From NCBI GenBank assembly GCA_030592345.1, contig JAUVJO010000001.1, positions 1 to 53,925 of the forward strand: 53,925 nucleotides of DNA. The letters run 5' to 3'. How positions within the stretch are numbered: position 1 is the stretch's first letter; the number at the start of each line of letters is the position of its first letter. This DNA comes from Deltaproteobacteria bacterium. Its GTDB lineage: Bacteria > Desulfobacterota > Desulfobacteria > Desulfobacterales > C00003060. Position numbers and translations under genes: made by a program. The notes beneath the pieces are model-generated. The model was not told the DNA's origin. It worked only from the letters and a program-made list of their open reading frames with translations, and made no database searches. Below, piece after piece: positions 2,835 to 45,621 of this stretch.

Positions 2835-3365
2835 TTGCGGATTGCGGAGTTTAACAATGAGCCAAAATTTTTTAAAGGCCGTATTTGGGGATTATCCCCA
2901 GTTCCAGGATTACAATTCCATACGGTCCGCATTGCAAAACACCAGGGAAAAGAACGATATTCAAAGATTTCGCTGGATACTGGGACGCTTTCTCGGCCCC
3001 ATGCTCCATGCCTATTACAAGGCAGAACCCTTGAGTTTAAAAGGGAACTTCCCAGAAACAGAAAGAATATACTAAGAACGATAGTTGCATTTTCCAATGG
3101 TTCAGGCGGCACGGTGTGCCTTGGTGTTGATGACGACCGAACAGTGGTTGGCGTCCAGGATGATCCCTTTATCCTGGAAGAACGACTTTCCAGCGTTATT
3201 TATGATTCAATCTCGCCCACTCCCAATGTGTTTTTCCAGACAAATATTGACTTTCAGAAAAAAATTTTGGGCTGCGTTATCAGTCGAAATCCTCGACGAC
3301 GTACTGTCAGTACGCCTTACTCGGAAGTCAGATATCATAAAACAGGGATCAGTGTTGTTTACTGA
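2835..3365 (+). pseudogene. fragment of an AlbA_2 (Schlafen-like) DNA-binding-domain protein
   Basis: RTLEFKRELPRNRKNILRTIVAFSNGSGGTVCLGVDDD matches the start of AlbA_2-type ATP-dependent DNA-binding regulators. There is no plausible start near the domain N-terminus. The ORF stops after ~110 aa of domain, abutting the TA pair. Confidence 0.45.
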
Positions 3366-3676
3366 TAAGCAGAATCATGGTCAGGATGTAACGACAGCAG
3401 GCGCAGCCATGAGCCGTCACGATATGCCACTCCACGAAACCCCTTGCTGATTCGGACACTGTAAAGCTTGTTACCGCTTGGACCTTTTTGTGATAGAATA
3501 AGCTCCCATTTTAAACCATAATCTGCATATACCTGTTGCCATGTCATGTTCGCTAATTTTCGCAAGGTATTTAGAATGTTGCACTGATCGCTTTTGGTGA
3601 GGTTGAAAAGCTGTCGTTGAAAGACGGGGTTGTTCAAATCCAAACGTATGTGTTGATGTGTTTTCTGGTTCATCAT
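3359..3676 (-). CDS. putative RelE/ParE-superfamily toxin (105 aa)
   Basis: The size, the C-terminal LYSVRISKGFRGVAYRDGSWLRLLSLHPDHDSAY pattern and the 4-nt overlap with the upstream antitoxin ORF support the call. Confidence 0.5.
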   Translation of the reverse strand: MMNQKTHQHIRLDLNNPVFQRQLFNLTKSDQCNILNTLRKLANMTWQQVYADYGLKWELILSQKGPSGNKLYSVRISKGFRGVAYRDGSWLRLLSLHPDHDSAYQ

Positions 3677-3924
3677 TTGATCCGGGCTTCTAATTCCTCA
3701 AAGTTTGTCTCTTTGGGTGAATTTTCTTCTGCCCAGGCAACAGCTTCATTGAGATCGGTCTGAACATCCGGCCTGTGAAGCCATTTTTCATTATCGGGAA
3801 TGAAGCGCCCCAGCTTGACGATCCAAACGCCTATGTCTATCTCATTTAACATTACGGTTTGACCCGCGTATTTTTTACCCAGGGAGATCTGCCCGCTACT
3901 GCCGACGGTTTTTATAATGTTCAT
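3673..3924 (-). CDS. AbrB/MazE (SpoVT-AbrB) type antitoxin (83 aa)
   Basis: The N-terminal VGSSGQISLGKKYAGQTVMLNEI looped-hinge-like segment fits this family. The ORF is translationally coupled to 3359..3676. Confidence 0.6.
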   Translation of the reverse strand: MNIIKTVGSSGQISLGKKYAGQTVMLNEIDIGVWIVKLGRFIPDNEKWLHRPDVQTDLNEAVAWAEENSPKETNFEELEARIK

Positions 3925-4375: not shown

Positions 4376-5377
4376 ATGGATATTCGCGGCAAGAAAATCC
4401 TGGTTATCGGCGGGGCCGGACTTATCGGCTCGCATGTGGTGGAGGAGCTGCTTAAGGAAGACGTGGAAGAGGTTATCGTCTATGATAATTTTTGCAGGGG
4501 AACATGTGAAAACCTGGAAGAAGCTCTGAAAGATCCACGTTGCCGGATCTTTGAAATCGGAGGCGATATCCTTCAGACGGACGTACTGGATGCAGCCATG
4601 AAAGGCGTGGACGGCGTTGTTCATCTGGCAGCTTTGTGGCTTCTTCAGTGCTATGAATTCCCGAGAGCGGCCTTTGATGTGAATATCCGTGGCACCTTCA
4701 ATGTACTGGAGGCGTGTGTGGCCAATAAAGTAGCGCGGCTGGTTTACTCTTCTTCCGCATCTGTCTATGGGGATGCCGTCGAGGAACCAATGACAGAAGG
4801 TCATCCTTACAACAACTGGACATTTTACGGTGCTACAAAAATCGCCGGGGAACACATGTTCAAATCTTATCACACGCGTTATGACCTTAACGGTGTGGGC
4901 TTGAGATATATGAACGTCTATGGGCCTCGCCAGGATTATAAGGGCACCTATATTGCTGTTATGATGAAGATCCTCGACAACCTCGATAAGGGATTTCCCC
5001 CGGTTGTTTTTGGAGACGGCAGCCAGGCCTATGACTTCATTTATGTTGGTGATGCGGCCCGCGCTAATGTGTGTGCACTTAAAAGCGATGTTCCTTTTGG
5101 CTTTTACAATGTGGGCCGAGGCATAAAGACTTCCATCAAGGAATTGACGGATTTGATCTTGAAAATCACTGGTTCGGATTTGAACATTCAGTATGAACCT
5201 GCGGGCCAGACCTTTGTGACCAATCGTGTGGGGGATGCAACTGCAGCCGAAAATGATCTCGGGTTTAGATGGACAGTGGACCTGGAAGATGGTCTGGGGC
5301 GGCTTATCCAATGGCGAAAATCGCATATCAAAGAAGTGGAAAAGAGACGCAAGAAAGCAGGAATAGAAGAGGCGTAG
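4376..5377 (+). CDS. NAD-dependent epimerase/dehydratase (extended SDR)
   Basis: GKKILVIGGAGLIGSH Rossmann motif, YGATK (YxxxK) and SSSASVYG are present. ATG 4376 is preceded by GAGGA. The track starts at GTG 4361. Confidence 0.85.
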   Translation: MDIRGKKILVIGGAGLIGSHVVEELLKEDVEEVIVYDNFCRGTCENLEEALKDPRCRIFEIGGDILQTDVLDAAMKGVDGVVHLAALWLLQCYEFPRAAFDVNIRGTFNVLEACVANKVARLVYSSSASVYGDAVEEPMTEGHPYNNWTFYGATKIAGEHMFKSYHTRYDLNGVGLRYMNVYGPRQDYKGTYIAVMMKILDNLDKGFPPVVFGDGSQAYDFIYVGDAARANVCALKSDVPFGFYNVGRGIKTSIKELTDLILKITGSDLNIQYEPAGQTFVTNRVGDATAAENDLGFRWTVDLEDGLGRLIQWRKSHIKEVEKRRKKAGIEEA

Positions 5378-5445
5378 GTTATCAGTTATCAAAAAAGCCC
5401 ATCCCGGATTGCCGAAATCTGATATAAGAAATTTGGGGGAATGTA

Positions 5446-5733
5446 ATGAAGGCGATTATCGAGGGGAATACCATCAGGTTAGAAGAGAACATATTACCAC
5501 AAGGATCTCCGCCGATTGAAGGCGAGGTCGAGTTAAACGGGGAAACGATTTCCATATGTATGGCAAAGAAACCATATGGGAACATGTCAGATATAGTCAG
5601 GGCTCTGGTAAATGAAGGATATTTGGAAAAGACCTCTGCCGTAGTGACGACAAAAAAGACTCGCAGGAGGCATCCCTTGGTAGAGGCGCATGGCAGACCG
5701 GTTTCAGAAACCATAATTGAGGATCGGAGATAG
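5446..5733 (+). CDS. VapB-like antitoxin (95 aa)
   Basis: The MKAIIEGNTIRLEE N-terminus and the ...SETIIEDRR C-terminus resemble PIN-associated antitoxins. A GGGGGA RBS is present. The stop lies 5 nt before the PIN ORF. Confidence 0.55.
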   Translation: MKAIIEGNTIRLEENILPQGSPPIEGEVELNGETISICMAKKPYGNMSDIVRALVNEGYLEKTSAVVTTKKTRRRHPLVEAHGRPVSETIIEDRR

Positions 5734-5738
5734 TCAGA

Positions 5739-7457
5739 TTGATTTATTATTATCTTGATTCAAGCGCTATCGTAAAAAGATATATCCGAGAGCAGGGCTC
5801 TCAATTCATAGCCGATATAATTACTAAACCAGACTGTCACTTTTCAACTGTATCTATCAGTAAAACGGAAGTCATATCCGCCTTGAGCAAGAGATATAGG
5901 GAAAAAGAGCTTTCAGATGACGATTATGGGGCTGTATTGGATAGGGTATTGTTGGATTTTGATGATGAATACAGTATAATACCAGCAAGCCAGGAACTTG
6001 TCAGTCTATCTGCGAGGCTGGCCCAAGTCTACCCGTTGAAAGGTTATGATTGTATTCAGTTATCTGCTGCCATATCTTTGAAAACCAGGCTCAAAGATTT
6101 CAACGTTAGAACGGTATTGATATCATCAGACTCACAAGTGTGCAACGCGGCAGCAGACGAGGGGTTTGAGGTCATAGACCCCAACAAGATCACCAAAGAA
6201 GGCAAGCAGAAACCTCCCGTACAGCCTCAAATGCAAATACCCGTAACAAGACCAGTCTTTGATTATTCAGACAGGGAGGCCATTCTCAGACCGCTGTCAA
6301 TTGGTTGGGTAGTACAGGGACCAAATGTGAAGAAATTCGAGGAGCTATTTGCTGAATTCACAGGAGTAAAACATGCTGTTGCTACGAATTCTTGCACGGC
6401 TGCTCTACATCTTGGGCTTCTTTCTTTGGGAATTGCACCTGGAGATGAAGTCATTGTCCCCTCATTCACATTCATTGCAACCGCTAATGCAGTAGAATAT
6501 TGCGGGGCTAGACCGATTTTTTGTGACGTTGATCTGGGAACGTTCAACATAGATATTGAAAAAATAGAAGAGGTTTGTGAGCACAATGCTCAAAACGGAA
6601 ATCTCAAGGCTATCATGCCTGTCAGCCTTTTTGGCCTAAGCGCTAATATGCCCGCAATATGCGAGATTGCCGGCAGATATGGCTTCAGAGTGCTGGAAGA
6701 CGCCGCGTGTGCGCTCGGTTCAGGAATATCTCATCCTTCAGCTTCGGACTTTGGGCTGAAGCATTCCGGTACCTGGGATGATGCGGCAGCATTCTCTTTT
6801 CATCCGAGAAAGGCGATGACCACCGGGGAAGGGGGGATGTTTACCACAAACTCTGATGAACTGGCTGACAGAGTCCGTTCGCTCCGTGACCATGGGGCTT
6901 CAAAATCTGATCTGCAAAGACACATCGAGAAGGGCGGATCGCTCTTGCCTGAATATAATGTCCTCGGCTTCAATTACAGAATGACAGATATACAGGGATC
7001 GCTTGGAACTACACAGGTGCAAAAGGCAGATGAGATAATCAGAAACAGGATGGCGAGGGCAAACAGGTACAATGAACTGCTCAAAGGGATAGAGTGGCTG
7101 AAAATCCCGTATGTGCCACAGAATTATGTCCACGCTTATCAATCATACGTCTGTTTGGTCGTCAGCAATAAGTTGACAGTTGATGGCAAAATAGACTGGG
7201 ATGAAGTCAACAGGTTGAATCTGCTCAGAAACCGGCTAATGGCCAAGCTCGAGGATAGAGGGGTTTCAACCCGGCAAGGGACACACGCAGTTCACACACT
7301 CGGTTATTACAGGGACAAATATCGAATCAAGAATCATGATTATCCAAACTCATTCGTTGCTGACAGACTGAGCATTACTCTACCTCTGTATCCCCAAATG
7401 ACAGAAGATGAGCAGAAATATGTAGCCCAACAGCTTTTGAAAGCTCAAACACGATAA
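5739..7457 (+). CDS. PIN-domain (VapC-like) N-terminus fused in frame to a DegT/DnrJ/EryC1/StrS sugar aminotransferase
   Basis: TTG start. Residues 1-150 have the PIN acidic quartet D7 (YLDSS), E44, D104 (GYDCIQL) and D131 (ISSDS). From M165 (nt 6231) the sequence is MQIPVTRPVF...NSCTAALHLGL...SFHPRKAMTTGEGG, typical of DegT. There is no stop codon between the two parts. Confidence 0.7.
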   Translation: MIYYYLDSSAIVKRYIREQGSQFIADIITKPDCHFSTVSISKTEVISALSKRYREKELSDDDYGAVLDRVLLDFDDEYSIIPASQELVSLSARLAQVYPLKGYDCIQLSAAISLKTRLKDFNVRTVLISSDSQVCNAAADEGFEVIDPNKITKEGKQKPPVQPQMQIPVTRPVFDYSDREAILRPLSIGWVVQGPNVKKFEELFAEFTGVKHAVATNSCTAALHLGLLSLGIAPGDEVIVPSFTFIATANAVEYCGARPIFCDVDLGTFNIDIEKIEEVCEHNAQNGNLKAIMPVSLFGLSANMPAICEIAGRYGFRVLEDAACALGSGISHPSASDFGLKHSGTWDDAAAFSFHPRKAMTTGEGGMFTTNSDELADRVRSLRDHGASKSDLQRHIEKGGSLLPEYNVLGFNYRMTDIQGSLGTTQVQKADEIIRNRMARANRYNELLKGIEWLKIPYVPQNYVHAYQSYVCLVVSNKLTVDGKIDWDEVNRLNLLRNRLMAKLEDRGVSTRQGTHAVHTLGYYRDKYRIKNHDYPNSFVADRLSITLPLYPQMTEDEQKYVAQQLLKAQTR

Positions 7458-7459
7458 GT

Positions 7460-9349
7460 ATGTGCGGAATCTGCGGAATATTTAACTTGAACGGCGAACC
7501 AGTATCTCCGGTGAACTTGCGGAAAATGACCGATGCCATCGCCCACCGCGGGCCAGATGGAGAGGGGTTCTACATCGATAGCTTCATCGGGCTGGGTCAT
7601 CGAAGGCTGGCCATCATTGACCTTTCTCCTGCTGGCCACCAGCCCATGCTTTCACCGGACGGTAATCATGCCTTGACCTACAATGGTGAAGTATACAACT
7701 TCCAAGAACTGCGCATGGAATTGGAAAGCCTGGGCCATCAGTTCCGCTCCCGGACCGATTCCGAGGTGGTGCTCCATGCTTACGCCCAGTGGGGAGCTAA
7801 TTGCTTAAACCGCTTCAACGGCATGTTCGCTTTTGCCGTGTGGGACAAGACCAGACAGGAGCTTTTCCTGGCCCGGGACCGCTACGGAATTAAACCGTTG
7901 TACTACACCTTTACAGGCAATTACTTCATTTTTGCTTCAGAGCAAAAAGCAATCCTCACCCATCCTGCTGTTCGTCGGGACATCGACCTGGAGGCTCTGC
8001 TTGAATACTTCACGTTCCAAAATATTTTCACTGACAAAACTCTGCTCAAAGGCATCAAACTTTTCCCTCCTGGCCACTACTCCAGACTCCCTCTTGGCTC
8101 TGCCCTTGTGCCTGACTCCTTCAGCCTTAAGCCTGTCCAATATTGGGACTTCGATTTCCGCGAACCCGAACATCCCGCCACTGAAGCCGAATATATAGAG
8201 GAACTCGACCGCCTTTTCCGTCAGGCAGTAAATCGTCAGCTTATAAGCGATGTGGAACTGGGCTCCTATCTAAGCGGTGGTATGGATTCGGGTTCAATCA
8301 CTGCCATTGCTGCCACCCAACTACCTTATATAAAAACCTTCACCTGTGGCTTTGATCTGCACTCGGCGTCGGGCCTGGAACTAGGCTTTGATGAGCGTCA
8401 GAAATCTGAGTTCATGTCCTATCTCTTCAAGACGGAGCACTACGAGATGGTGCTCAAGGCCGGGGATATGGAACGGGTTTTGCCCAAATTGGCCTGGCAT
8501 CTGGAAGAACCCCGGGTGGGTCAAAGTTATCCGAACTTCTACGCGGCACAATTGGCTTCCAAGTTTGTCAAGGTGATCTTGACCGGCTCAGGTGGCGACG
8601 AATTGTTTGCTGGCTATCCCTGGCGCTATTACCGTGCTATTGTTAATGATAGTTTTGAAGGCTACATTGACAAATATTACGCATTTTGGCAACGCCTGAT
8701 TCCTAACAGAACTATCCACAACGTGTTTCGGCCTGTGTGGAACGAAGTTGGACACGTTTGGACCCATGATATCTTCCGCGATGTTTTTCGGGAACAGGCA
8801 CACAATCTCGCGACGCCTCAAGACTATATAAATCATTCACTGTATTTTGAGGCAAAAACTTTCCTTCACGGCCTTCTCGTCGTTGATGATAAACTGAGTA
8901 TGGCCCACAGCCTGGAAACACGGGTGCCTTTTTTAGACAATGACCTTGTCGATTTTGCTATGCAGGTGCCTGTAACCCTGAAGCTACAGAACCTTAAAGA
9001 AGTCATCCGCATAAGCGAAAACGAGCCCGGCAAGGTCAAAAAGCATTTTGAAAAAACAAGAGACGGTAAATTAGTCCTGAGAAAAGTCATGGGACGCTAT
9101 GTGCCCGAAACCATTACCAGCGGTATCAAGCATGGCTTTTCCGCACCTGACGCGTCCTGGTTCAAAGGTGACAGCATTGAATATGTGCAGAAGATTATCT
9201 TTAAAGATAATGCTCATATTTACAACTACCTGGATCGAAAGGCGTTACAAGAACTGGTACAGGAACATCTCGATGGCGCGATTAACCGGCGATTGCTCAT
9301 CTGGTCAGTGCTGAATTTTGAATGGTGGCTGAGGAAGTATCTTGCTTAA
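7460..9349 (+). CDS. AsnB-family glutamine-dependent amidotransferase, paralogue 1 (629 aa, short class)
   Basis: MCGICGIF (Cys2 nucleophile), HRGPD, HRRLAIIDLSPAGHQPM, YNGEVYN, SDSEV and the PP-loop LSGGMDSGS are present. The start lies 2 nt after the DegT stop. Confidence 0.9.
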   Translation: MCGICGIFNLNGEPVSPVNLRKMTDAIAHRGPDGEGFYIDSFIGLGHRRLAIIDLSPAGHQPMLSPDGNHALTYNGEVYNFQELRMELESLGHQFRSRTDSEVVLHAYAQWGANCLNRFNGMFAFAVWDKTRQELFLARDRYGIKPLYYTFTGNYFIFASEQKAILTHPAVRRDIDLEALLEYFTFQNIFTDKTLLKGIKLFPPGHYSRLPLGSALVPDSFSLKPVQYWDFDFREPEHPATEAEYIEELDRLFRQAVNRQLISDVELGSYLSGGMDSGSITAIAATQLPYIKTFTCGFDLHSASGLELGFDERQKSEFMSYLFKTEHYEMVLKAGDMERVLPKLAWHLEEPRVGQSYPNFYAAQLASKFVKVILTGSGGDELFAGYPWRYYRAIVNDSFEGYIDKYYAFWQRLIPNRTIHNVFRPVWNEVGHVWTHDIFRDVFREQAHNLATPQDYINHSLYFEAKTFLHGLLVVDDKLSMAHSLETRVPFLDNDLVDFAMQVPVTLKLQNLKEVIRISENEPGKVKKHFEKTRDGKLVLRKVMGRYVPETITSGIKHGFSAPDASWFKGDSIEYVQKIIFKDNAHIYNYLDRKALQELVQEHLDGAINRRLLIWSVLNFEWWLRKYLA

Positions 9350-9393: not shown

Positions 9394-10006
9394 ATGAAAT
9401 TGAACTCGCAAATCCAGCAAATCGATGAGGTCTACCATGCAATCCTTTTTGACGACCGGCAGCATGTGTGTGGCTTCTTTGCCCGAAGCGCGTGAACGCA
9501 CTTTACTCATTAATAGTTTCTCCAAAACCTATGCCATGACCGGGTGGCGTATCGGGTATCTGGCCGGTCCGGAAGCGGTGAGCTCACAGGCTCTCAAAGC
9601 CAGTCAATACACTATCACCAATGTTTCTGCATTCGTCCAGAAGGCGGCTTTATGTGCCCTTACTAATTCTGACGTTGCTCCTGCCGTTAGCCAGATGGTT
9701 GTTCGCTACCAGAGGCGGCGGGACAGGGCCTTGAAGATTCTCAGAAGTCGTTCCGATGCAGGAATCAGCGTGGTAAAACCCCGAGGGGCCTTTTACCCGT
9801 TTTACGATATTCGTAATTTGGGAGAGCCATCTACCGTTATTGCCAGGCGATTGCTTGACGAAGCCATGGCTTCCGTGGTCCCCGGATCGGCTTACGGGGC
9901 ATGCGGGCAAGGGTTTTTGAGGATGACGCTTGCCGCATCTGATGACGTGGTAGAAGCGGGAATTCATAAATTTGGTAGATTGGGTAAATCGGGGATAAAA
10001 AACTAG
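9394..10006 (+). pseudogene. class I/II PLP aminotransferase, C-terminal half, frameshifted
   Basis: The frame from 9394 reads ...IDEVYHAILFDDRQHV. The frame from 9425 continues CVASLPEARERTLLINSFSKTYAMTGWRIGY (PLP-lysine SFSK motif). A frame change therefore lies near 9465. The N-terminal ~200 aa of the family is absent. Confidence 0.7.
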
Positions 10007-11339: not shown

Positions 11340-12413
11340 ATGCTTATTTCAAGAAAAATGATGAAGGAAAACATTGGGATCGTTCCTCATTCCAGACCGC
11401 GCCTAACACGCGAAGACCAGATGGTTATCGGTAGTGTTTTGCAATCGGGAATGATTGCAGAAGGAAAGCTAGTAGAAAAGTTTGAAGGCGCTGTAAGTGA
11501 GTACTTGGGATTGGAAGGTGGAATAGCCACTTCCAGCGGAACTAGCGCGCTGTTTCTTTTATTGAAAGGTTTGGATATTGGTGAAGGTGATGAAGTCATC
11601 ATCCCGACGTATGTTTGCCGATCAGTTTGGGACGCTGTAGTTGCGACGGGGGCACAACCGATATTCTGTGACGTTGGTCATGATTGGTGCATGACCTTGG
11701 CCAGTGTAAGACCACATATTACGCCTCAAACGAAGGCCATCATTGTGGTTCATATTTTTGGAATTGTGGCTGCTGTTGAGCCTGTGTGCGCACTCGGTAT
11801 CCCAGTAATTGAAGACTGCTGTCAGGCACTTGGAGCAACGCGTGATGGGAAGCTGGCCGGGACAATCGCCGATTTTTGTATCGCGTCCTTCCATGCGACC
11901 AAACTGCTTACGACAGGCGAAGGCGGAATGGTTCTGACTAAGGATAAAAACCTGTTACCAAAATTGAGAGAGCTTAAACAGGGTAACAGTAATCGGTTGA
12001 GCCCTCGTTTTCGCTATCCGCTGACAGATTTGCAGGCAGCTCTGGGATTGAGTCAGCTCGCCCAGTACGCTATATCCTTAGATTTGAGACGTGCCATTTC
12101 AGATTACTATTTCGCTAAGCTTGAAGGACTACCTGTTCAACTGCCTCATTGCGTACGAGATCATAGCATTTTTTTCCGTTTTCCCATCCGTACCAAAAAA
12201 AAATTTGAGGTGCTTAGGGCATCATTTGATGCAAAAGGAATTCAGGTCCGCAAGGGGGTTGATTCACTTTTGCATAGAGCATGCGGAATAAATTCTGAAC
12301 GCTTTCCTGCTGCTGAGCAGTGTTATGCCGAAACGTTGTCTATTCCAATATACCCAGCTATGACTGAAGAGATACAAAGAAAGGTGATAGGGGCTTGTTG
12401 GCAAATATTATAA
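11340..12413 (+). CDS. DegT/DnrJ/EryC1/StrS sugar aminotransferase
   Basis: SSGTSALFLLLKGLDIGEGDEVIIPTYVC...PIFCDV and SFHATKLLTTGEGGMV (PLP lysine) are present. Confidence 0.85.
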   Translation: MLISRKMMKENIGIVPHSRPRLTREDQMVIGSVLQSGMIAEGKLVEKFEGAVSEYLGLEGGIATSSGTSALFLLLKGLDIGEGDEVIIPTYVCRSVWDAVVATGAQPIFCDVGHDWCMTLASVRPHITPQTKAIIVVHIFGIVAAVEPVCALGIPVIEDCCQALGATRDGKLAGTIADFCIASFHATKLLTTGEGGMVLTKDKNLLPKLRELKQGNSNRLSPRFRYPLTDLQAALGLSQLAQYAISLDLRRAISDYYFAKLEGLPVQLPHCVRDHSIFFRFPIRTKKKFEVLRASFDAKGIQVRKGVDSLLHRACGINSERFPAAEQCYAETLSIPIYPAMTEEIQRKVIGACWQIL

Positions 12414-31681: not shown

Positions 31682-33685
31682 ATGTGTGGAATAGCAGGTA
31701 TTATTGGAAGTCCGGTCAGCTTATCTCTTTTGCCTTGCATAAAAAAAATGACCGACGTCATCCGTCACAGGGGTCCGGACGACGAAGGATTTGTGTTCTT
31801 CAAGCCTGGGCAGGGTAGAATCTGGCTGTACGGCGGCGAAGACACCCCGGACAGTGTGTACAGGGCTGGTTTGGCATATACCCCGGAACGCCCTTTCTCG
31901 GGCCAAAAACATGAAAACGCGACGCTGGCCCTGGGGCATCGGCGTCTTTCGATTTTGGATCTTTCCCCTGCCGGTCATCAGCCCATGTGCACGCCTGACA
32001 GGCGCTACTGGATTGTTTACAATGGCGAAATTTATAATTATCTGGAGATTCGAGATGAACTGATACGCAAAGGGTATCGGTTCCGGTCCAGGAGCGACAC
32101 CGAAGTGTTGCTTGCAGCCTATGTCCACTGGGGGACCGGGGCCCTGAACCGGCTGGTGGGGATGTTTGCCTTTGCCATTTATGACCGGGATGAGGACTGG
32201 CTGTTTCTGGCCCGCGATTTCTTCGGGATCAAGCCTTTGTATTATACGGTTTGGCCCGGTGGCTTCGCCTTCGCCTCGGAGATCAAAGCCCTGCTCACCC
32301 TTCCCCACGTCAGCCGCAAGCTCAACCCTCAGAGAGCCTATGAATACCTGCGCTTTGGCCTTACTGACCATGGAGAGGATACACTATTTAAGGACATCCA
32401 GCAACTCCCAGTGGCTCATTATCTATGTGTGGGCCTTGAAGGAAAAGAAAGCCCCCAGCCTGTCCGTTACTGGGATATTGACCTGAGCAAAAAGGTAGAT
32501 CTTCCCTTTGGCGAAGCGGTGGCCAGAATGAAGAAACTTTTTCTGAAAAACGTAGAGTTGCATTTGCGGAGCGATGTTCCTGTTGGGGCAGCTCTTTCCG
32601 GTGGCATTGATTCTTCGTCCATCGTCATGGTAATGCGGCAACGACATGAACGTAGCCTGGATCTGCATACCTTTTCTTACATTGCTGAGGATTCAAGTGT
32701 AAACGAAGAGAAATGGGTCGACATTGTTGGCAAAGTAGCCAGGGCTTCCACTCACAAGATACGGGCTTCGCCCGATCAACTGCTTTCCGATCTGGATCAA
32801 CTTATCCACATTCAAGACGAACCGTTCGGGAGTACCAGCATTTATGCACAGTACTTGGTAATGCGCCTGGCTGCGGAGAACGGTATCAAGGTAATGTTAG
32901 ATGGCCAGGGAGCGGATGAAATTCTCGCTGGATATCTATTTTATTTTGGTGCCCGCATGGCTTCCCTTGTCAGGCATGGGAAAGTAATTAATGCAGCGCA
33001 TTCTCTCCTGAAAGCTTCGAAATATCCGGGTGTCGGATTAAGGAGCCTCCTTCTTCATTCAGGTGCTTGCCTGTTATCTGAAGCTTTAAGAAATTCAGCC
33101 AGGAGACTCTTTGGCCCCAGCCCGGTTCCCCTGTGGTTAAGCCAATCCTGGTTTTCCACACATGGGATCACATCTCCAAATTACTCAACGGCTTCACGAC
33201 GAGACGTGTTGAGGCAACATCTTTATAGATCCGTCCAAATAGGTCTGCCTTCCCTGCTGCGTTACGAAGACCGCAACTCCATGGCGCATTCCATTGAAAG
33301 TCGGGTGCCTTTCTTGACGCCTGAGTTAGTTCAATTCCTCTTTTCCTTGCCAGAAGAATACCTCATCTCCTCAAACGGAACCACAAAATCCTTATTCCGC
33401 GAAGCGATGCGGGGCATTGTCCCCGACTCCATTCTAAAACGCAGAGACAAAATCGGGTTTGCGACTCCTGAAGAAAAATGGATTCGCCTTCTGCAGCCTT
33501 GGGTGGATTCGCTTTTGAAAAACAACACAACAAGAGGCATCCCTGCATTAAATCTCCCCGGTCTTCATAAGACGTGGCAAAAAGCATTATTGGGCCAGAA
33601 AAAATTTGACTTCACCATGTGGCGGTGCATTAACTTCATCCGTTGGACCGCTCAATATGAAGTCTCACATAGCACATATCCTTAG
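31682..33685 (+). CDS. AsnB-family glutamine-dependent amidotransferase, paralogue 2 (667 aa, long class)
   Basis: MCGIAGII, HRGPDDEG, HRRLSILDLSPAGHQPM, YNGEIYNY, SDTEV, the PP-loop LSGGIDSSSIV and LRYEDRNSMAHSIESRVPFL are present. Confidence 0.9.
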   Translation: MCGIAGIIGSPVSLSLLPCIKKMTDVIRHRGPDDEGFVFFKPGQGRIWLYGGEDTPDSVYRAGLAYTPERPFSGQKHENATLALGHRRLSILDLSPAGHQPMCTPDRRYWIVYNGEIYNYLEIRDELIRKGYRFRSRSDTEVLLAAYVHWGTGALNRLVGMFAFAIYDRDEDWLFLARDFFGIKPLYYTVWPGGFAFASEIKALLTLPHVSRKLNPQRAYEYLRFGLTDHGEDTLFKDIQQLPVAHYLCVGLEGKESPQPVRYWDIDLSKKVDLPFGEAVARMKKLFLKNVELHLRSDVPVGAALSGGIDSSSIVMVMRQRHERSLDLHTFSYIAEDSSVNEEKWVDIVGKVARASTHKIRASPDQLLSDLDQLIHIQDEPFGSTSIYAQYLVMRLAAENGIKVMLDGQGADEILAGYLFYFGARMASLVRHGKVINAAHSLLKASKYPGVGLRSLLLHSGACLLSEALRNSARRLFGPSPVPLWLSQSWFSTHGITSPNYSTASRRDVLRQHLYRSVQIGLPSLLRYEDRNSMAHSIESRVPFLTPELVQFLFSLPEEYLISSNGTTKSLFREAMRGIVPDSILKRRDKIGFATPEEKWIRLLQPWVDSLLKNNTTRGIPALNLPGLHKTWQKALLGQKKFDFTMWRCINFIRWTAQYEVSHSTYP

Positions 33686-36993: not shown

Positions 36994-38913
36994 ATGTGCG
37001 GCATTTCAGGGATTATGTCGTCCGAGGTGATGAATCCGGACATCCTTCGTGAGTGGCTTCAGGGGATGAACTTCCTCCAGGCCCACCGTGGTCCTGACGG
37101 CGTAGGCATTTGGATTCACGAGTCTAGCCGTTTGGGCTTCGGTCATGTGCGCCTAAAAATTATCGACCTTGCAACGGGTGCGCAGCCCATGCGCTCTGAT
37201 GCAGGCTTGATGATCACCTATAATGGTGAAATATATAATTATCAAGAGCTTCGTAAGGAACTCGGGCAGGAAACCTTTCGCACTAACTCTGACACGGAAG
37301 TCATCCTACGGGCATACGAAAGGTGGGGAGAAGACTGCGTCGATCACCTGCGGGGCATGTTTGCCTTTGCCATTTGGGATGAAAAGAATAAAAAGCTCTT
37401 CTGCGCCAGGGACCGATTCGGGATTAAGCCATTCTACTACACTGAAAACGTCAACGGATTTTTCTTCGCCTCCGAAATCAAAGCCATTTTACCCTTTGTG
37501 GAAGCAATTGTTACGGATTACAATGGGCTTAAAGATTATCTGACGTTTCAGTATACCCTTGGAGAAAAAACTCTTTTTGACGGCGTTTCTCAACTCCTTC
37601 CGGCACATATTCTAACAATAATAAATGGAAACATTCGAATTCGAAAGTACTGGGAAGTCCAGTACAAGTTGGACTGGTTTCACACGAAGCTCTATTTTCA
37701 AGACCAAATTCGTAATCTGTTAATGGATTCCATACACTTACATTTACGAAGTGATGTACCTGTGGGTGCGTATCTTAGCGGGGGGCTTGACTCAAGCATT
37801 GTAGCATCTCTGGCCAGAAACAGTTATGTATGCGACTTTCGCACATTCCATGGAAAATTTTCAGTGAGTCCTCTGTACGATGAATCCAGATATGCCCACG
37901 CAGTAAGCGAGTTTTGCGATATGGAACTTCACGAACAGAATATTACTGCTGAGGATTTTGTTTCTAACATTCGAAACGTCATTTATCATCTGGACTACCC
38001 GGTAGGGGGTCCTGGCTCTTTTCCTCAGTATATGATCTCGAAACTGGCGAGCGGGCATTTGAAGGTGGTGCTTGGCGGCACAGGTGGGGACGAGATTTTT
38101 GGCGGGTACGTGAGGTATTTAATTTCTTACTTCGAGCAGTGCATCAAGGGAGCCATTGAAGGAACCATGCATAGCGGCAATTTTGTGGTCACCTACGAGT
38201 CGATTATCCCTAACTTGGCAGCCTTGAGAAATTATAAGCCCCTGCTGAAGGAATTCTGGAGGGAAGGGTTATTTGAGGATCGTGACAAGCGTTACTTCCG
38301 ACTTATCAACAGGGCAAATGGGCTGTCTGGAGAAATAAACTGGGATCGGCTCGAACCATATTCCGCCTTTGAAACTTTCAGGAGTATATTTTGGGGAGAC
38401 AACGTTGAAAAGAAGTCCTATTTCGACAGTATGACCCATTTCGATTTCAAAACGCTTCTTCCAGCACTACTGCAGGTTGAGGATCGCATGAGTATGGCCC
38501 ATGGGCTTGAGTCACGCGTTCCTCTGCTGGACCATCCCCTTGTGGAGATCGCAGCCACAATTCCTTCAAACATCAAATTTGAAAACGGGCAACTTAAACA
38601 CCTGATGAAGAGCACATTTCGTCAAAACTTGCCTGATGTAGTAAACCAGCGAGCCGACAAAATGGGATTCCCTGTACCTCTTTCGGAGTGGATGCAGGGG
38701 GAACTGAAAGACTTCGTACAGGACATCTTCCACGGTAGTAATGCTCGGAACCGCGAGTATCTTAACCCTGATTTTGACATCCAATCGCTGATTGCAACAG
38801 AGGGGAAATTCACACGGAAGGTTTGGGGGCTCTTATCCCTGGAGTTGTGGCAACAGGAATTTCATGATAAGGCTCAAATGTACACAAACTATCGGAAGGG
38901 AATAAACGTATGA
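36994..38913 (+). CDS. AsnB-family glutamine-dependent amidotransferase, paralogue 3 (639 aa, short class)
   Basis: MCGISGIM, HRGPD, VRLKIIDLATGAQPM, YNGEIYNY, SDTEV, the PP-loop LSGGLDSS and SMAHGLESRVPLLD are present. Confidence 0.9.
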   Translation: MCGISGIMSSEVMNPDILREWLQGMNFLQAHRGPDGVGIWIHESSRLGFGHVRLKIIDLATGAQPMRSDAGLMITYNGEIYNYQELRKELGQETFRTNSDTEVILRAYERWGEDCVDHLRGMFAFAIWDEKNKKLFCARDRFGIKPFYYTENVNGFFFASEIKAILPFVEAIVTDYNGLKDYLTFQYTLGEKTLFDGVSQLLPAHILTIINGNIRIRKYWEVQYKLDWFHTKLYFQDQIRNLLMDSIHLHLRSDVPVGAYLSGGLDSSIVASLARNSYVCDFRTFHGKFSVSPLYDESRYAHAVSEFCDMELHEQNITAEDFVSNIRNVIYHLDYPVGGPGSFPQYMISKLASGHLKVVLGGTGGDEIFGGYVRYLISYFEQCIKGAIEGTMHSGNFVVTYESIIPNLAALRNYKPLLKEFWREGLFEDRDKRYFRLINRANGLSGEINWDRLEPYSAFETFRSIFWGDNVEKKSYFDSMTHFDFKTLLPALLQVEDRMSMAHGLESRVPLLDHPLVEIAATIPSNIKFENGQLKHLMKSTFRQNLPDVVNQRADKMGFPVPLSEWMQGELKDFVQDIFHGSNARNREYLNPDFDIQSLIATEGKFTRKVWGLLSLELWQQEFHDKAQMYTNYRKGINV

Positions 38914-41366: not shown

Positions 41367-41511
41367 TTTCCAGTATGCAAAGGGGAGGATTGAAGAATCC
41401 GTGGCTTTTATCACAAAGGAGATGGAGGAGTTTGAAAAGGACGGCCTGAGTGGATTATCCACAGGGACACATGGTGCGATTGGCTATCAAAAAATTGACG
41501 CAGACGGCTAG
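41359..41511 (+). pseudogene. truncated HEPN/DUF86-like partner of the MNT gene (51 codons)
   Basis: The ATG overlaps the MNT stop by 8 nt, a typical MNT-HEPN arrangement. The ORF stops after 51 codons with no RxxxxH motif. It ends where the convergent AsnB gene ends. Confidence 0.4.
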
Positions 41512-43532
41512 CTGACTGAACCGAAAAATACCCGTTGCCACATTTCCAGATTTACTATCCGCCACAGGCCCGGAATATTGGCAACGTCATTAGCTGATAA
41601 ACTCCTGAGCTGCTGGATAACTTTTTCACCCAAGTAAGGCGAGCTCAGTATGTCATCATGATTGAAAAGTTGGGCTATTGAGCTTGCTCCTTCTTTTAGC
41701 CACTGTTGCTCGGGCGTGGCAAAACCCAATTTGCTGCGCCTCCACCTGACTTGTTCGGGCAAAAAGCCGTCCATTGCCTGCCGCAGTAACCACTTGGTCC
41801 AGCCATGATGGATAAGCTGTGAAACCGGTAGAGAGAAACAGAACTCGACGAGCCTGTAATCCAGAAACGGTACACGTGCCTCCAGAGAAAAGGCCATCGA
41901 GCTTCGGTCCTCGTAGCGCAAAAGTGCAGGCAGACTATATACGAATAGATCCTGGTGTAATCGCTCCGCCAAGTTGTCATAGCCTTTATGTTTGCCCTGA
42001 CCAGTGCGGCGTTCTGCAAATTGCCTCTCGAAAGATGGGTTGAGCATGTAGGCAGAAACCGTTGGGTTGGTCCGGAATCGGGCATTGCCAAGATTCATCA
42101 TCACTCGTTGTATTGGTCCTGGCAGGATATTATAAAGCCCCAGAGCCAGCAGAAAGGCCATTGAGTTGCCTGTCCCCGCCGACAACTCCCGGACCGTTTT
42201 TAGCGTTGCCCACGGGCCTCGCGTGCGCACGGTCTGTGCCAGGTAGGGCCCAATGTAAAGATGATATCCGGCTAATAGCTCATCCCCACCCTGTCCATCT
42301 AACAGAACCGTGACATCGTGCTGCCGGGCCAGGCGCATTACACTCCACTGAGAATAGATACTGGTGGAGCCAAAAGGTTCCTCCTGGTGCCAGACGAGCT
42401 GTTCCAGGTCATCCCAAAGCCCATCTGCCCCTCGCGGAAATATCCGGTTAGACTCAGCGCCTGTGTACTCGATGACCTGCTGAATATAGGAACGCTCATC
42501 AATGCCTGGATTATCAAAACAGGCGCTGAACGTCTTTTGCCGGTCACCAACCAGTTCGCGCGGCACGGCCCTTTCTTCCAAAAGCAGATAGTTGGCCGCA
42601 GAGACGATGCTGGATGAATCCAGGCCGCCACTCAGGCATGTTCCAATAGGTACATCGCTTCGTAACCGTAAGCGTACTGCATCGATCAGTAGCTCACGGA
42701 ATTGGGCTGCAAGGTCTCGATGATTGTTCTTGGACCCATGTCCATTCAACGAAGCGTCAACTTGAATATCCCACCAGCGTCGGATTTCCAGACTGCTCCG
42801 CCTCAAATCAACAGCAAGGTAGTGGGAAGGGGGCAAGCACTTGATTCTTTCAAAAAAGGTTTCGTCCGTATGACCCAGCGAGCCAAGGGCCAGGTTGTCA
42901 TAGATGATAGCGTCGTTAGGGCGACTGGGAATGGCCGGGTGTGCCAGCAAAGCCTTGATCTCCGAGGCAAAGGCGAAGAGTCGGCCATCCCAATAGTAGT
43001 AAAGCGGCTTGATGCCAAAGCGGTCACGGGCACACAAAAGCCTGTGTTGCCGCTGATCCCAGATGGCAAAGGCCCACATGCCGTTAAAATGACGCAGGCA
43101 GTCGAGCCCCCACTCGGCGTAGGCTGCCAGGATCACTTCGGTATCAGTGCCGGTGCGAAAGGAATAACCTTTTGCTTTCAGCTTTTCACGCAATTCCAGG
43201 TAGTTGTAAACTTCGCCGTTATGGGTGATCCATAGATGGCCATCTAAATAGCTCGTGGGCCCGTGCCCGGCAGCCGAGAGATCCAGAATCGACAGACGAC
43301 GATGCCCCAAGGCGAGATTATATGGTTTGCCCTTGAATTTGGTCAGCGAAGGCAAACCAAGTGCACGAATTGTGTCTTCACCGCCACAGGCGACCCAATC
43401 ACCGGCCAGCATGTCAGCCAAGAGATATCCCTCATCATCCGGACCTCTATGGCACATTAACGATGTCATCTGACCAATGCAACGGCCAGCTTTATGTTCT
43501 GCGAAGTCGACAACACCAACTATCCCGCACAT
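41508..43532 (-). CDS. AsnB-family glutamine-dependent amidotransferase, paralogue 4 (674 aa, long class)
   Basis: MCGIVGVV, HRGPDDEG, HRRLSILDLSAAGHGPT (G where the other four have Q), HNGEVYNY, TDTEV, the PP-loop LSGGLDSSSIV and LRYEDRSSMAFSLEARVPFLD are present. Confidence 0.9.
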   Translation of the reverse strand: MCGIVGVVDFAEHKAGRCIGQMTSLMCHRGPDDEGYLLADMLAGDWVACGGEDTIRALGLPSLTKFKGKPYNLALGHRRLSILDLSAAGHGPTSYLDGHLWITHNGEVYNYLELREKLKAKGYSFRTGTDTEVILAAYAEWGLDCLRHFNGMWAFAIWDQRQHRLLCARDRFGIKPLYYYWDGRLFAFASEIKALLAHPAIPSRPNDAIIYDNLALGSLGHTDETFFERIKCLPPSHYLAVDLRRSSLEIRRWWDIQVDASLNGHGSKNNHRDLAAQFRELLIDAVRLRLRSDVPIGTCLSGGLDSSSIVSAANYLLLEERAVPRELVGDRQKTFSACFDNPGIDERSYIQQVIEYTGAESNRIFPRGADGLWDDLEQLVWHQEEPFGSTSIYSQWSVMRLARQHDVTVLLDGQGGDELLAGYHLYIGPYLAQTVRTRGPWATLKTVRELSAGTGNSMAFLLALGLYNILPGPIQRVMMNLGNARFRTNPTVSAYMLNPSFERQFAERRTGQGKHKGYDNLAERLHQDLFVYSLPALLRYEDRSSMAFSLEARVPFLDYRLVEFCFSLPVSQLIHHGWTKWLLRQAMDGFLPEQVRWRRSKLGFATPEQQWLKEGASSIAQLFNHDDILSSPYLGEKVIQQLRSLSANDVANIPGLWRIVNLEMWQRVFFGSVS

Positions 43533-43566: not shown

Positions 43567-45621
43567 TTATGACACTCCCCCGTATTGCCCCAACCGCAAC
43601 CAGGTTTCCAGATTGACCCACCGCCAACGCCGCCGTGCCTCATCTACAAACGGCACATCCAATCCCAATTTTGATTGCACCACATTAGCATCCAGATACT
43701 TCCCCACCGCCGATTCACTCGTAAAGCGATCCCTCATTACAGAACCAACCTTAGAGAGCAAATCCTGCTCTGGCATCTCAAAACCAACTTTGTCCTTTCG
43801 CCAGGCAATCGCAGGTGGTAAGACGTCTGCCATTGCTTTACGCAACACCCACTTTGTCCATCCGGCATGGATACGCCAGGGTGCAGCAGAACCAAAGGTA
43901 TAATCCACCAGGCGATAGTCAAGAAAAGGAACGCGCGTCTCAATCGAAAAAGCCATGGAGTTGCGGTCTTCATATCGCAGGAGGTATGGCAGGCTACTAT
44001 CAAAGATAGCGTGGTAGGCAAAATCACTCATGCTTCGATCTGTTAATACAATGGCCCGATGATAAAAACGATCTTTGTATGCATGGACAAAGGAAGGGTT
44101 TAAGCAAGTTTGAGTTGTCTCTCCTTTTCGTACTGAAAAAGCGCGTTGAAGCGGAGCAAATATCCTTAGCGGTTGTCTAAAGGTACGTTGAAGTGGAATC
44201 AGTATTTTCGATGGTAATTGCAACATGATTGACAAGATTGATAAGCACAACATCGACCACGCAGAAAGCTCGGTGGCAATCCTGATATCTTTTGCATCCA
44301 ACAAAGCCTGGCGGAATTGTCCTTCTCTGATTTTCTCGGCAAGGTAGACCCCAAAAGGACGATAGCCGGCTAATATCTCGTCTGCCCCTTGTCCGTCTAG
44401 CAACACAGTCACACCACGTTCACTGGCCAGGTGCATAACACACCATTGGGCAAAGATGCTGACTCCTGGGAATGGTTCATCCTGGTGCCAGATCAGACGC
44501 TCAAGGTCCGTCAACAACCGTTCGGCTGTTGGAAACGTAAAACTGGCATGTACACCGGTATGCGCCGCCATGACCTCGATATGCTGGCGCTCATTGAACG
44601 TGCCATCGGCGTGATAGACAGCACTGAAGGTCTCTTGATGCTTGCCAGGGCGCGCTGCCGAGATTCCGTGCTCATGCTGCATCATCCGGTTAACAACCCC
44701 GACGATTGAAGAGGAATCAAGCCCGCCCGACAGGCAGGTGCCAATAGGAACGTCGGCACGTAAGCGAAGGCGTACAACGTCAGTGAAGAGTGCGCCAAAC
44801 TCTTCTACAACCCGGGTTGGCTCTAAATTACCTGACTCTCCACTTGGCTGAATATCCCAATACCGTTGGAGGGTTCGGCCATGGTTGGTTACGGTCAGAT
44901 AATGACTTGCAGGCATCCCTTTTACCCCGCTATAAAAAGTGGTGCCCATCTGCGGGCTTGGCAAAACGCCCATTGCCAGATAGTCAAACACAACTTCGTC
45001 GTTGGGCTGAAATGGGATACCGTGCGGGCCGACCAACGCTTTTATCTCAGAGGCAAAACAGAATCGCGAATTACCATCAACGTAGTAGAGAGGTTTGATG
45101 CCAAAACGATCCCTTGCCAGAAACAGTTTCCTGGCTTCTACTTGCCAAATGGCAAATGCCCACATCCCATTCAGATGGGACAAGCAGTCCTGGCCCCACT
45201 TCTGATATGCAGCCAGGATAACCTCTGTGTCAGTGCCGGTATGGAATCTAAAACCGTAGCCGGTTAATTCGGCGCGTAATTCCAGGTAGTTATAAACTTC
45301 GCCATTGTGGATAATCCAGAAACGCCTATCGGTGCTAGCCATAGGCTGATGACCTGCAGTGGAAAGGTCCAGAATCGCCAAGCGACGAAAGCCCAGCACA
45401 AAATCAAAGTGTTCACCAAAGAATTGGCCGATGTTGGGTAAACCAAGTTGCGGATTGGTGTCCTTACCGCCACAATGCACCGTCTTCCCGCTCTGCGTAT
45501 TGATAAGCAGATAGCCTTCATCGTCTGGGCCACGATGACGCAAAATCGTGGTCGCCGCTTGGACGGCCGAAAGGTCGACCGGTTTGCCATCAAGATGCCA
45601 GATGCCGTAGATACCACACAT
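43567..45621 (-). CDS. AsnB-family glutamine-dependent amidotransferase, paralogue 5 (684 aa, long class)
   Basis: MCGIYGIW, HRGPDDEG, FRRLAILDLSTAGHQPM, HNGEVYNY, TDTEV, the PP-loop LSGGLDSSSIV and LRYEDRNSMAFSIETRVPFLD are present. The start shares one nt with the upstream stop (TAATG). Confidence 0.9.
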   Translation of the reverse strand: MCGIYGIWHLDGKPVDLSAVQAATTILRHRGPDDEGYLLINTQSGKTVHCGGKDTNPQLGLPNIGQFFGEHFDFVLGFRRLAILDLSTAGHQPMASTDRRFWIIHNGEVYNYLELRAELTGYGFRFHTGTDTEVILAAYQKWGQDCLSHLNGMWAFAIWQVEARKLFLARDRFGIKPLYYVDGNSRFCFASEIKALVGPHGIPFQPNDEVVFDYLAMGVLPSPQMGTTFYSGVKGMPASHYLTVTNHGRTLQRYWDIQPSGESGNLEPTRVVEEFGALFTDVVRLRLRADVPIGTCLSGGLDSSSIVGVVNRMMQHEHGISAARPGKHQETFSAVYHADGTFNERQHIEVMAAHTGVHASFTFPTAERLLTDLERLIWHQDEPFPGVSIFAQWCVMHLASERGVTVLLDGQGADEILAGYRPFGVYLAEKIREGQFRQALLDAKDIRIATELSAWSMLCLSILSIMLQLPSKILIPLQRTFRQPLRIFAPLQRAFSVRKGETTQTCLNPSFVHAYKDRFYHRAIVLTDRSMSDFAYHAIFDSSLPYLLRYEDRNSMAFSIETRVPFLDYRLVDYTFGSAAPWRIHAGWTKWVLRKAMADVLPPAIAWRKDKVGFEMPEQDLLSKVGSVMRDRFTSESAVGKYLDANVVQSKLGLDVPFVDEARRRWRWVNLETWLRLGQYGGVS

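Follow-up and report, generated by a model that had tools for sequence, protein, structure and literature searches.

We analysed a stretch of 53,925 nucleotides (nt) from a Deltaproteobacteria bacterium (GenBank assembly GCA_030592345.1, contig JAUVJO010000001.1, forward strand; this whole stretch is called the window below). We describe here an open reading frame (ORF) of the window in which a VapC-type PIN domain runs in frame, via a short linker, into a DegT-family aminotransferase (AT), and which forms a toxin–antitoxin (TA) cassette with the small gene in front of it. The fusion ORF (5739..7457, + strand) starts with TTG and encodes 572 amino acids (aa); the 95-aa ORF (5446..5733, ATG start) ends 5 nt before the TTG. 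A first-pass annotation, made from the letters of the DNA alone, had read 5739..7457 as a PIN domain fused in frame to a complete AT, and the Pfam domains together with a check of the ORF confirmed this; its other statements on the sequence held as well. The features of the fusion and its partner are the following.

5446..5733, + strand: antitoxin gene, 95 aa, assigned from its position and its C-terminal tail GRPVSETIIEDRR
5739..6188, + strand: PIN (VapC-type) domain, residues 1–150, TTG start, assigned from Pfam, alignment, the AlphaFold2 (AF2) model and the ratio of non-synonymous to synonymous substitution rates (dN/dS)
5757–5759, 5868–5870, 6048–6050 and 6129–6131, + strand: acidic residues D7, E44, D104 and D131 of the PIN domain, respectively, in conserved alignment columns
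6189..6236, + strand: linker, residues 151–166, with low AF2 confidence (pLDDT) and fixed length, containing ATG 6231–6233 (M165)
6237..7457, + strand: DegT/DnrJ/EryC1/StrS pyridoxal phosphate (PLP) sugar AT domain, residues 167–572 plus the stop codon, assigned from Pfam and a match to 3bn1

The AT part matched PF01041 (DegT_DnrJ_EryC1) at aa 180–566 with an E-value of 7.5e-100, covering profile positions 9–359 of 360. In the Protein Data Bank (PDB) this domain matched perosamine synthetase 3bn1 (E 1e-58). The PLP lysine, K358 (6810–6812, in SFHPRK), and the Asp facing the pyridine nitrogen, D321 (6699–6701, in LEDAA), aligned with the corresponding Lys and Asp of 3bn1. Against the NCBIfam equivalogs for sugar aminotransferases (PseC, ArnB, LegC, WecE and Per) the domain scored below every cut-off, the best being PseC with 296 against 423.5 bits. 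Residues 151–164 of the linker read ITKEGKQKPPVQPQ and are followed by M165, encoded by ATG 6231, at the coordinates given in the first-pass annotation. The pLDDT of these 14 residues was low (63/55), as expected if the linker is flexible and unstructured. We also considered programmed frameshifting in the linker and rejected it: no recognisable slippery site was found there, and the stops that appear in the alternative frames soon after the linker follow from the conserved IP(I/V)T codons. The precomputed Pfam annotation of the 572-aa protein lists the aminotransferase families PF01041 and PF00155 only; the PIN part is missing from it, which is a caution for annotation.

We observed the following for the N-terminal part. 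In a scan of the whole protein, PF01850 (PIN) matched residues 4–117 with 21.9 bits, under the cut-off of 23.6 bits; when aa 1–164 were scanned alone the score was 25.6 bits, over the cut-off. The same profile was matched by all 44 aligned family members. The columns of D7, E44, D104 and D131 are invariant in the 44-sequence family alignment, and a larger alignment of 80 sequences has no variation at E44, D104 and D131, with conservation of at least 90% at D7. All four residues are also present in two related contigs described below (L001 and L006), and the claim of the first-pass annotation that the full acidic quartet is retained therefore stands. The AF2 model of the domain (pLDDT 94.6, pTM 0.87) has the alpha/beta/alpha PIN fold, and its Foldseek matches in the PDB (E ≤1e-3) were mostly VapC, FitB and PIN toxins, headed by 2fe1 (E 3e-7) and followed by 7by2, 5h4g, 3zvk and 2bsq. 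A PDB search with the single PIN sequence gave no match, while the fold search and a profile of the PIN family succeeded, the latter finding PAE0151 (2fe1, E 4e-9) and also VapC 7by2. On these alignments and models, the PIN domain is intact and of bona fide VapC type.

Relatives of the PIN domain were sought with HMMER among 1.84 billion representatives, which yielded 3005 relatives at E ≤1e-3, and the best 150 were inspected. All but one of these 150 are stand-alone proteins of 117–167 aa, and the matches stop at query residues ~148–151. The top match (P0001) had been called as a protein of 153 aa, yet it is part of a 176-aa remnant of a fusion on contig L001. In 79 metagenomic loci of the PIN family the ORFs are at most 197 aa long and none has a second domain. 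The window protein, with its 572 aa, thus departs from the stand-alone single-domain form (~130–160 aa) of a family whose members measure 117–173 aa.

The upstream 95-aa protein had no Pfam or NCBIfam match even at E 1–10, no PDB match in sequence or profile searches, and no significant BLASTP similarity to an AF2212-like partner. Its AF2 model was poor (pLDDT 58.8), with residues 1–70 rich in beta structure and residues 71–95 below a pLDDT of 50; the tail GRPVSETIIEDRR is probably disordered, as judged from this model. The family context was more informative. In 70 of the 79 metagenomic loci the PIN start is adjoined on its upstream side by an ORF of 40 aa or more; with one exception among the loci printed, the spacing lies between −4 nt (overlap) and +12 nt (gap). 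The N-terminal domains of these partners vary and include Phd/YefM and AF2212-like types. A strict tail pattern was matched by 27 of the 70 partner ORFs, and the tails shown resemble G.P.S[ED].II.[ED]R, as does that of the window protein. When a profile of 53 non-redundant partner tails was run against the window (981 ORF segments), its sole match was the extreme C-terminus of the 95-aa protein (E 0.001). The 5-nt gap between the antitoxin and the PIN start is common to the window, L001 and L006. Position and C-terminal motif identify the 95-aa ORF as the cognate antitoxin, though its type is unclassified. The first-pass annotation had called it a VapB-like antitoxin lying 5 nt upstream; the position and the tail motif bear out the role of antitoxin, but the protein matches no named VapB or other antitoxin family of Pfam or NCBIfam.

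Whether any homologue has the same fusion was a question raised with the first-pass annotation, and the whole-protein search answered it. A second intact fusion, P0154 on contig L006, has 564 aa and is 59% identical to the window protein over 99% coverage. The L006 contig opens with an antitoxin C-terminus, GKPVSDTIIEDRR and its stop codon, followed by a 5-nt gap and a TTG start. Its junction reads ...SHKKQIPITKP, and between residues 126 and 185 none of the codons ATG, GTG and TTG occurs in frame, so that the L006 AT is translatable from the PIN start only. Two further lineages carry the cassette in damaged form. The L001 remnant comprises the 3′ end of an epimerase gene, the antitoxin, and a TTG-started PIN domain that reads via the linker into ...KKIPITRPDFEG and a stop, with unrelated sequence thereafter. 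In L004, taken together with contig L016 from the same sample, the junction reads ...PKGQIPITRPVFDY; beyond it the AT has one +1 and one −1 indel and is cut short near residue 331. The spacing from P(N/T) to IP(I/V)T is exactly 17 residues in the window, L001, L004 and L006. Since linker length is equal and the sequence homologous in all four lineages, the comparison shows that the fusion had a single origin, and also that it has been kept intact in two diverged lineages.

Substitution patterns were then compared. The dN/dS ratios were 0.15–0.19 for the PIN domain and 0.20–0.27 for the antitoxin, values at which both are under purifying selection, and ~0.11 for the L006 AT measured against the stand-alone orthologue L015, again indicating purifying selection. 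Between the window fusion and that of L006 the synonymous sites are saturated, while dN is only 0.33. As the active site and the antitoxin are both conserved, the PIN domain is likely to be still an active toxin. Among the best 120 relatives of the AT, only P0153 (the protein of the window itself, recovered from other assemblies) and P0154 cover the PIN part, and the fusion is found in none of the other 149 best PIN representatives nor in the 79 metagenomic PIN loci. When the species representatives of GTDB were scanned with the full-length sequence, the sole match was a stand-alone AT, 31% identical, from a Calditrichia metagenome-assembled genome (MAG), and a first metagenome scan with PIN C-terminal patterns gave no confirmed locus. 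On this sampling, the fusion is real, rare and restricted to certain lineages. Two readings of the first-pass annotation, namely that loss of its stop codon turned the toxin into an N-terminal extension and that the protein truly has two domains, are both supported by the absence of an internal start in P0154, the equal linker length and the purifying selection.

The damaged contigs also have irregularities of their own. Homology ends abruptly in L001 (987..1049), with unrelated A+T-rich DNA after it, and in L004 (772..1124), where a small unrelated ORF follows that begins with MDMQAVKIDKDD; either may be a real rearrangement or a chimeric assembly. At 4..6 of L004, three bases from the contig end, TAG stands for the CAG of PIN Q85, which may be an error at the end of the contig or a genuine nonsense mutation in the toxin of that lineage.

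We then compared the site of the cassette with loci that lack it. The window is a large polysaccharide cluster of the ABC-transporter type, with genes for GDP-mannose dehydratase, epimerases, methyltransferases, glycosyltransferases and Wzm/Wzt. The cassette is flanked as follows.

4376..5377, + strand: upstream flank, gene for an NAD-dependent epimerase/dehydratase (Pfam Epimerase, E 7e-53), start placed at 4376 after the 333-aa gene call of L007
5378..5445, + strand: intergenic leader of the TA cassette, in which GGGGGA serves as Shine–Dalgarno (SD) sequence for the antitoxin
7460..9349, + strand: downstream flank, gene for an AsnB-like amidotransferase, assigned from Pfam and conserved 3′ of the AT (synteny with L014 and L018)

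The closest stand-alone orthologues of the AT are 62–64% identical to it, have ~405 aa and start with MKIPITKP. One of them, from a MAG annotated as Candidatus Scalinduaceae (GCA_046759445.1, L014), is the nearest named. The cassette-free loci share the gene order of the window: epimerase, AT, AsnB-like amidotransferase and methyltransferase. L014 and L015 have the two genes overlapping at ATGA, which holds both the AT start and the epimerase stop; the overlap measures 1 nt in L017, and in L018 a gap of 6 nt separates the genes. Because the two genes overlap or abut in all four loci, this comparison places the TA cassette exactly in a tight epimerase/AT junction, one that was probably translationally coupled before. 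Neither this position at a formerly overlapping junction nor the recombining behaviour described below was seen in the first-pass annotation.

Within the leader, positions 5410–5428 (TGCCGAAATCTGATATAA) aligned at the DNA level with the last epimerase codons and stop of L001 and L016, and may be a remnant of the donor flank. No sigma-70-like promoter was found in the spacer 5378–5445, and the counts of promoters and terminators were near those expected from shuffled sequence. A terminator-like hairpin with a T-run lies at 5401..5418 on the minus strand of the spacer, where no convergent minus-strand gene is evident. A search around 5300–6300 for direct or inverted repeats that might be insertion scars or operators found short, chance-level repeats only. 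The similarity between the linker and the 3′ end of the epimerase gene is too short to weigh an origin by duplication.

Different parts of the locus gave different divergences. Between the window and the organism of L016 and L004, the epimerases share 55% aa identity with saturated synonymous sites, as compared to 81% identity and a synonymous divergence (dS) of 0.46 for the antitoxin, 77–84% and 0.50–0.65 for the PIN domain, and 73% and 0.90 for AT residues 180–297. The L016 epimerase is nearer to those of the cassette-free L014 and L015 than to that of the window. Between the window and L006, synonymous identity is high over approximately residues 1–200 and saturated through the remaining AT. 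In none of 100 bootstraps did the two intact fusions have sister AT domains, and the AT of P0154 groups with stand-alone ATs. As similarity between lineages is far higher in the cassette and junction than in the flanks, these short contigs indicate, as we infer, recombinational exchange either of the cassette together with the junction or of the flanks, in either direction.

On these comparisons we propose the following course of events. The stop/start junction of a conserved epimerase–AT pair within a surface-polysaccharide cluster holds a VapBC-type type II cassette, which would have inserted there. Its toxin ORF, being without a stop, continues through the 17-residue linker into the full-length AT, such that one PIN–DegT protein of ~64 kDa would be made from TTG 5739, translated just behind the antitoxin. 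The insertion would have cut the AT off from its translational coupling to the epimerase, and ribosomes that read on from the toxin ORF would now supply AT translation. The toxin is probably still active and would be neutralised by the C-terminal tail of the antitoxin. The fusion would then tie a needed enzyme to a selfish module, and wherever an internal start is absent a nonsense or frameshift mutation in the toxin would also kill the enzyme. We consider it probable that the ORF is translated as a two-domain PIN–DegT protein that arose by insertion of a TA cassette at a coupled junction.

Several points weigh against this reading. The toxicity of a VapC protein with a C-terminal extension is a prediction. 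The N-terminal domain of the antitoxin was assigned to none of the recognised types (AbrB, RHH, Phd/YefM, HTH and AF2212-like). The AT is disrupted in two of the four cassette lineages, being truncated after 10 aa in L001 and at approximately aa 331 in L004, so the fusion is not always maintained. The AT of the window lies on a long branch. Lastly, about half of the window genes lack an SD sequence too, and the original Met (ATG 6231) is retained, in the window lineage only, so that some independent initiation is possible.

The mosaic divergence could also suggest a more far-reaching scenario, in which antitoxin, PIN domain and the stretch joining them to the 5′ part of the AT make up a selfish unit that spreads among related polysaccharide loci by homologous recombination in the conserved epimerase and AT flanks, with the fusion acting as a mutational shield. 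The toxin would then be hard for the host to lose, because the nonsense or frameshift mutation that disarms it also abolishes a needed glycan enzyme. We put this forward tentatively, as the less likely outcome.

The retained Met bears on another explanation, according to which the working AT is made from internal ATG 6231 and the PIN–AT product is a tolerated by-product of the lost toxin stop, functionally irrelevant here. M165 aligns with the start Met of the stand-alone orthologues, and many genes of the window, as noted above, lack an SD sequence. However, the energy of the duplex with the anti-SD is +0.6 kcal/mol at ATG 6231, within the weakest ~10% of positions, as against −8.4 kcal/mol at the antitoxin start and −6.6 kcal/mol at the TTG start, in agreement with the first-pass annotation, which had found no SD sequence before this ATG. 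In the relatives the residue at the position of M165 is K, G or K, and those with K or G keep the frame and the linker length; in L006 an intact AT can be read from the PIN start only. Ribosomes translating the PIN ORF would, moreover, occupy the site at 6231. We regard this explanation as unlikely.

The PIN domain could also have been domesticated into a non-toxic oligomerisation, RNA-binding or regulatory domain, with the small upstream protein being its partner or regulator and not an antitoxin. A permanent tether of a toxin to an enzyme of ~45 kDa is unusual, the solved members of the family are dimeric, and non-toxin PIN fusions such as PhoH2 and the GNAT-like fusions do exist (PMC5499597). 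Against this, the domain has kept the four acidic residues and other family-invariant residues, and the antitoxin, with a toxin-binding tail typical of the family, is under purifying selection in every lineage. Conservation of both the antitoxin and the active site is the pattern expected if the toxin is still dangerous, and domestication therefore appears distinctly unlikely to us.

The disrupted ATs of L001 and L004 and the long branch of the window AT would be in accord with a selectively neutral accident that precedes loss of the gene, where the TA insertion damaged the AT gene and left the fused ORF as a pseudogene in slow decay. The window also holds several gene fragments and, at 11340..12413, another DegT gene. 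The AT of the window is, however, of full length with K358 and D321 in place and a near-complete match to the DegT profile, and the full-length fusion of L006 has diverged to saturation at synonymous sites while holding dN at 0.33. The population from which the window comes has two single-nucleotide polymorphisms (SNPs) and no disruption in eight assemblies. Slow decay is, on this evidence, very improbable.

These eight assemblies also settle a reading offered in the first-pass annotation, that an assembly error hides a stop codon at the junction. The identical 572-aa protein (P0153) is encoded by another GenBank MAG contig (GCA_028572105.1) and by the Logan assemblies of six different sequencing runs. 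Across 5446–7457 these seven assemblies differ from the window by the two SNPs, with no indel and no stop: 5687 C/T changes A81 of the antitoxin to V, and 7439 G/A is synonymous at L567. Apart from the rarity of the architecture nothing speaks for an assembly or sequencing error that conceals a stop or frameshift where the PIN domain joins the AT; as the same ORF comes from independent assemblies and three other lineages have homologous junctions that are also in frame, such an error is effectively excluded. All four combinations of the two SNPs occur across the eight assemblies.

Other parts of the cluster had features of their own. Five paralogous AsnB-like genes, an unusually large number, lie in the 54-kb cluster (7460..9349, 31682..33685 and 36994..38913 on the plus strand; 41508..43532 and 43567..45621 on the minus strand). 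Of a class I/II aminotransferase, the ORF 9425..10006 (+ strand) encodes the C-terminal half only, covering positions 208–353 of 361 in Pfam and 213–377 of 387 in NCBIfam; it appears to be a gene fragment within the polysaccharide cluster. Upstream of the epimerase gene, 2835..3365 (+ strand) is a short Schlafen/AlbA_2 ORF (E 2e-17), possibly a fragment of a larger gene. Between it and the epimerase gene are two minus-strand ORFs, 3359..3676 (105 aa) and 3673..3924 (83 aa), which overlap by 4 nt. Their layout resembles a second TA pair; neither product has a match over a curated cut-off, and the only matches are weak DUF2080 ones of the 83-aa product. In L014, a 122-aa gene of the 23S_rRNA_IVP family (6240..6608) lies between the AT and the AsnB-like gene, so that one more gene junction of the same cluster holds a small insert. 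Searches of the window for Rfam families and tRNAs found none.

To our knowledge, the toxin of a TA system is nearly always a small protein that stands alone. Here, an apparently catalytically intact VapC-type toxin is joined to a biosynthetic enzyme of housekeeping type, and selection has maintained the combination in diverged lineages. It would illustrate one route by which a selfish cassette can be tolerated within an operon, namely rescue of the downstream gene by read-through translation, and it raises the testable idea that the fusion shields the toxin gene from inactivation. The protein is also a natural construct with which to ask whether a VapC toxin tolerates a large C-terminal cargo and whether the toxin and enzyme activities affect each other.

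Among known systems, the closest are the VapBC type II modules (PAE0151, 2fe1; K. pneumoniae VapC, 7by2; R. felis VapBC2, 3zvk; FitAB, 2bsq), which the window cassette resembles in the PIN fold with its four acidic residues and in the small antitoxin gene that lies directly upstream, tightly spaced and with a probably disordered C-terminal tail. It differs from them in that the toxin does not end as a stand-alone protein of ~150 aa but continues into a PLP enzyme of 406 residues, and in that the N-terminal domain of the antitoxin matches no known VapB class. Some chromosomal TA loci stabilise genomic islands or integron cassette arrays. The window is comparable in having a TA module within a variable, recombining cluster, but here the toxin is covalently fused in frame and not merely adjacent. 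With the cassette-free epimerase/DegT pairs (L014, L015, L017 and L018) the locus shares gene order, AT identity (62–64%) and the N-terminus (M)KIPITKP of the AT; these pairs lack the TA cassette, and their AT begins with a Met of its own, at a start codon that overlaps or adjoins the stop of the epimerase gene.

Matelska et al. 2017 (PMC5499597) described multi-domain PIN proteins, including PhoH2 (PIN–PhoH) and the PIN_15 and PIN_17 proteins with GNAT-like or PUA domains. Those proteins and the one described here alike have a VapC-like PIN domain covalently joined to another globular domain. The partners there are, however, nucleic-acid-related or a degenerate acetyltransferase, whereas the partner in the window is an apparently intact metabolic enzyme, the neighbouring gene of the operon. 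When the text of that paper was searched, no aminotransferase turned up as a PIN fusion partner, and our literature search for PIN–DegT or VapC–aminotransferase fusions found no precedent. The PIN–aminotransferase fusion is thus previously undescribed: the VapBC-like module is of a known type, and it is the fused toxin that is new.

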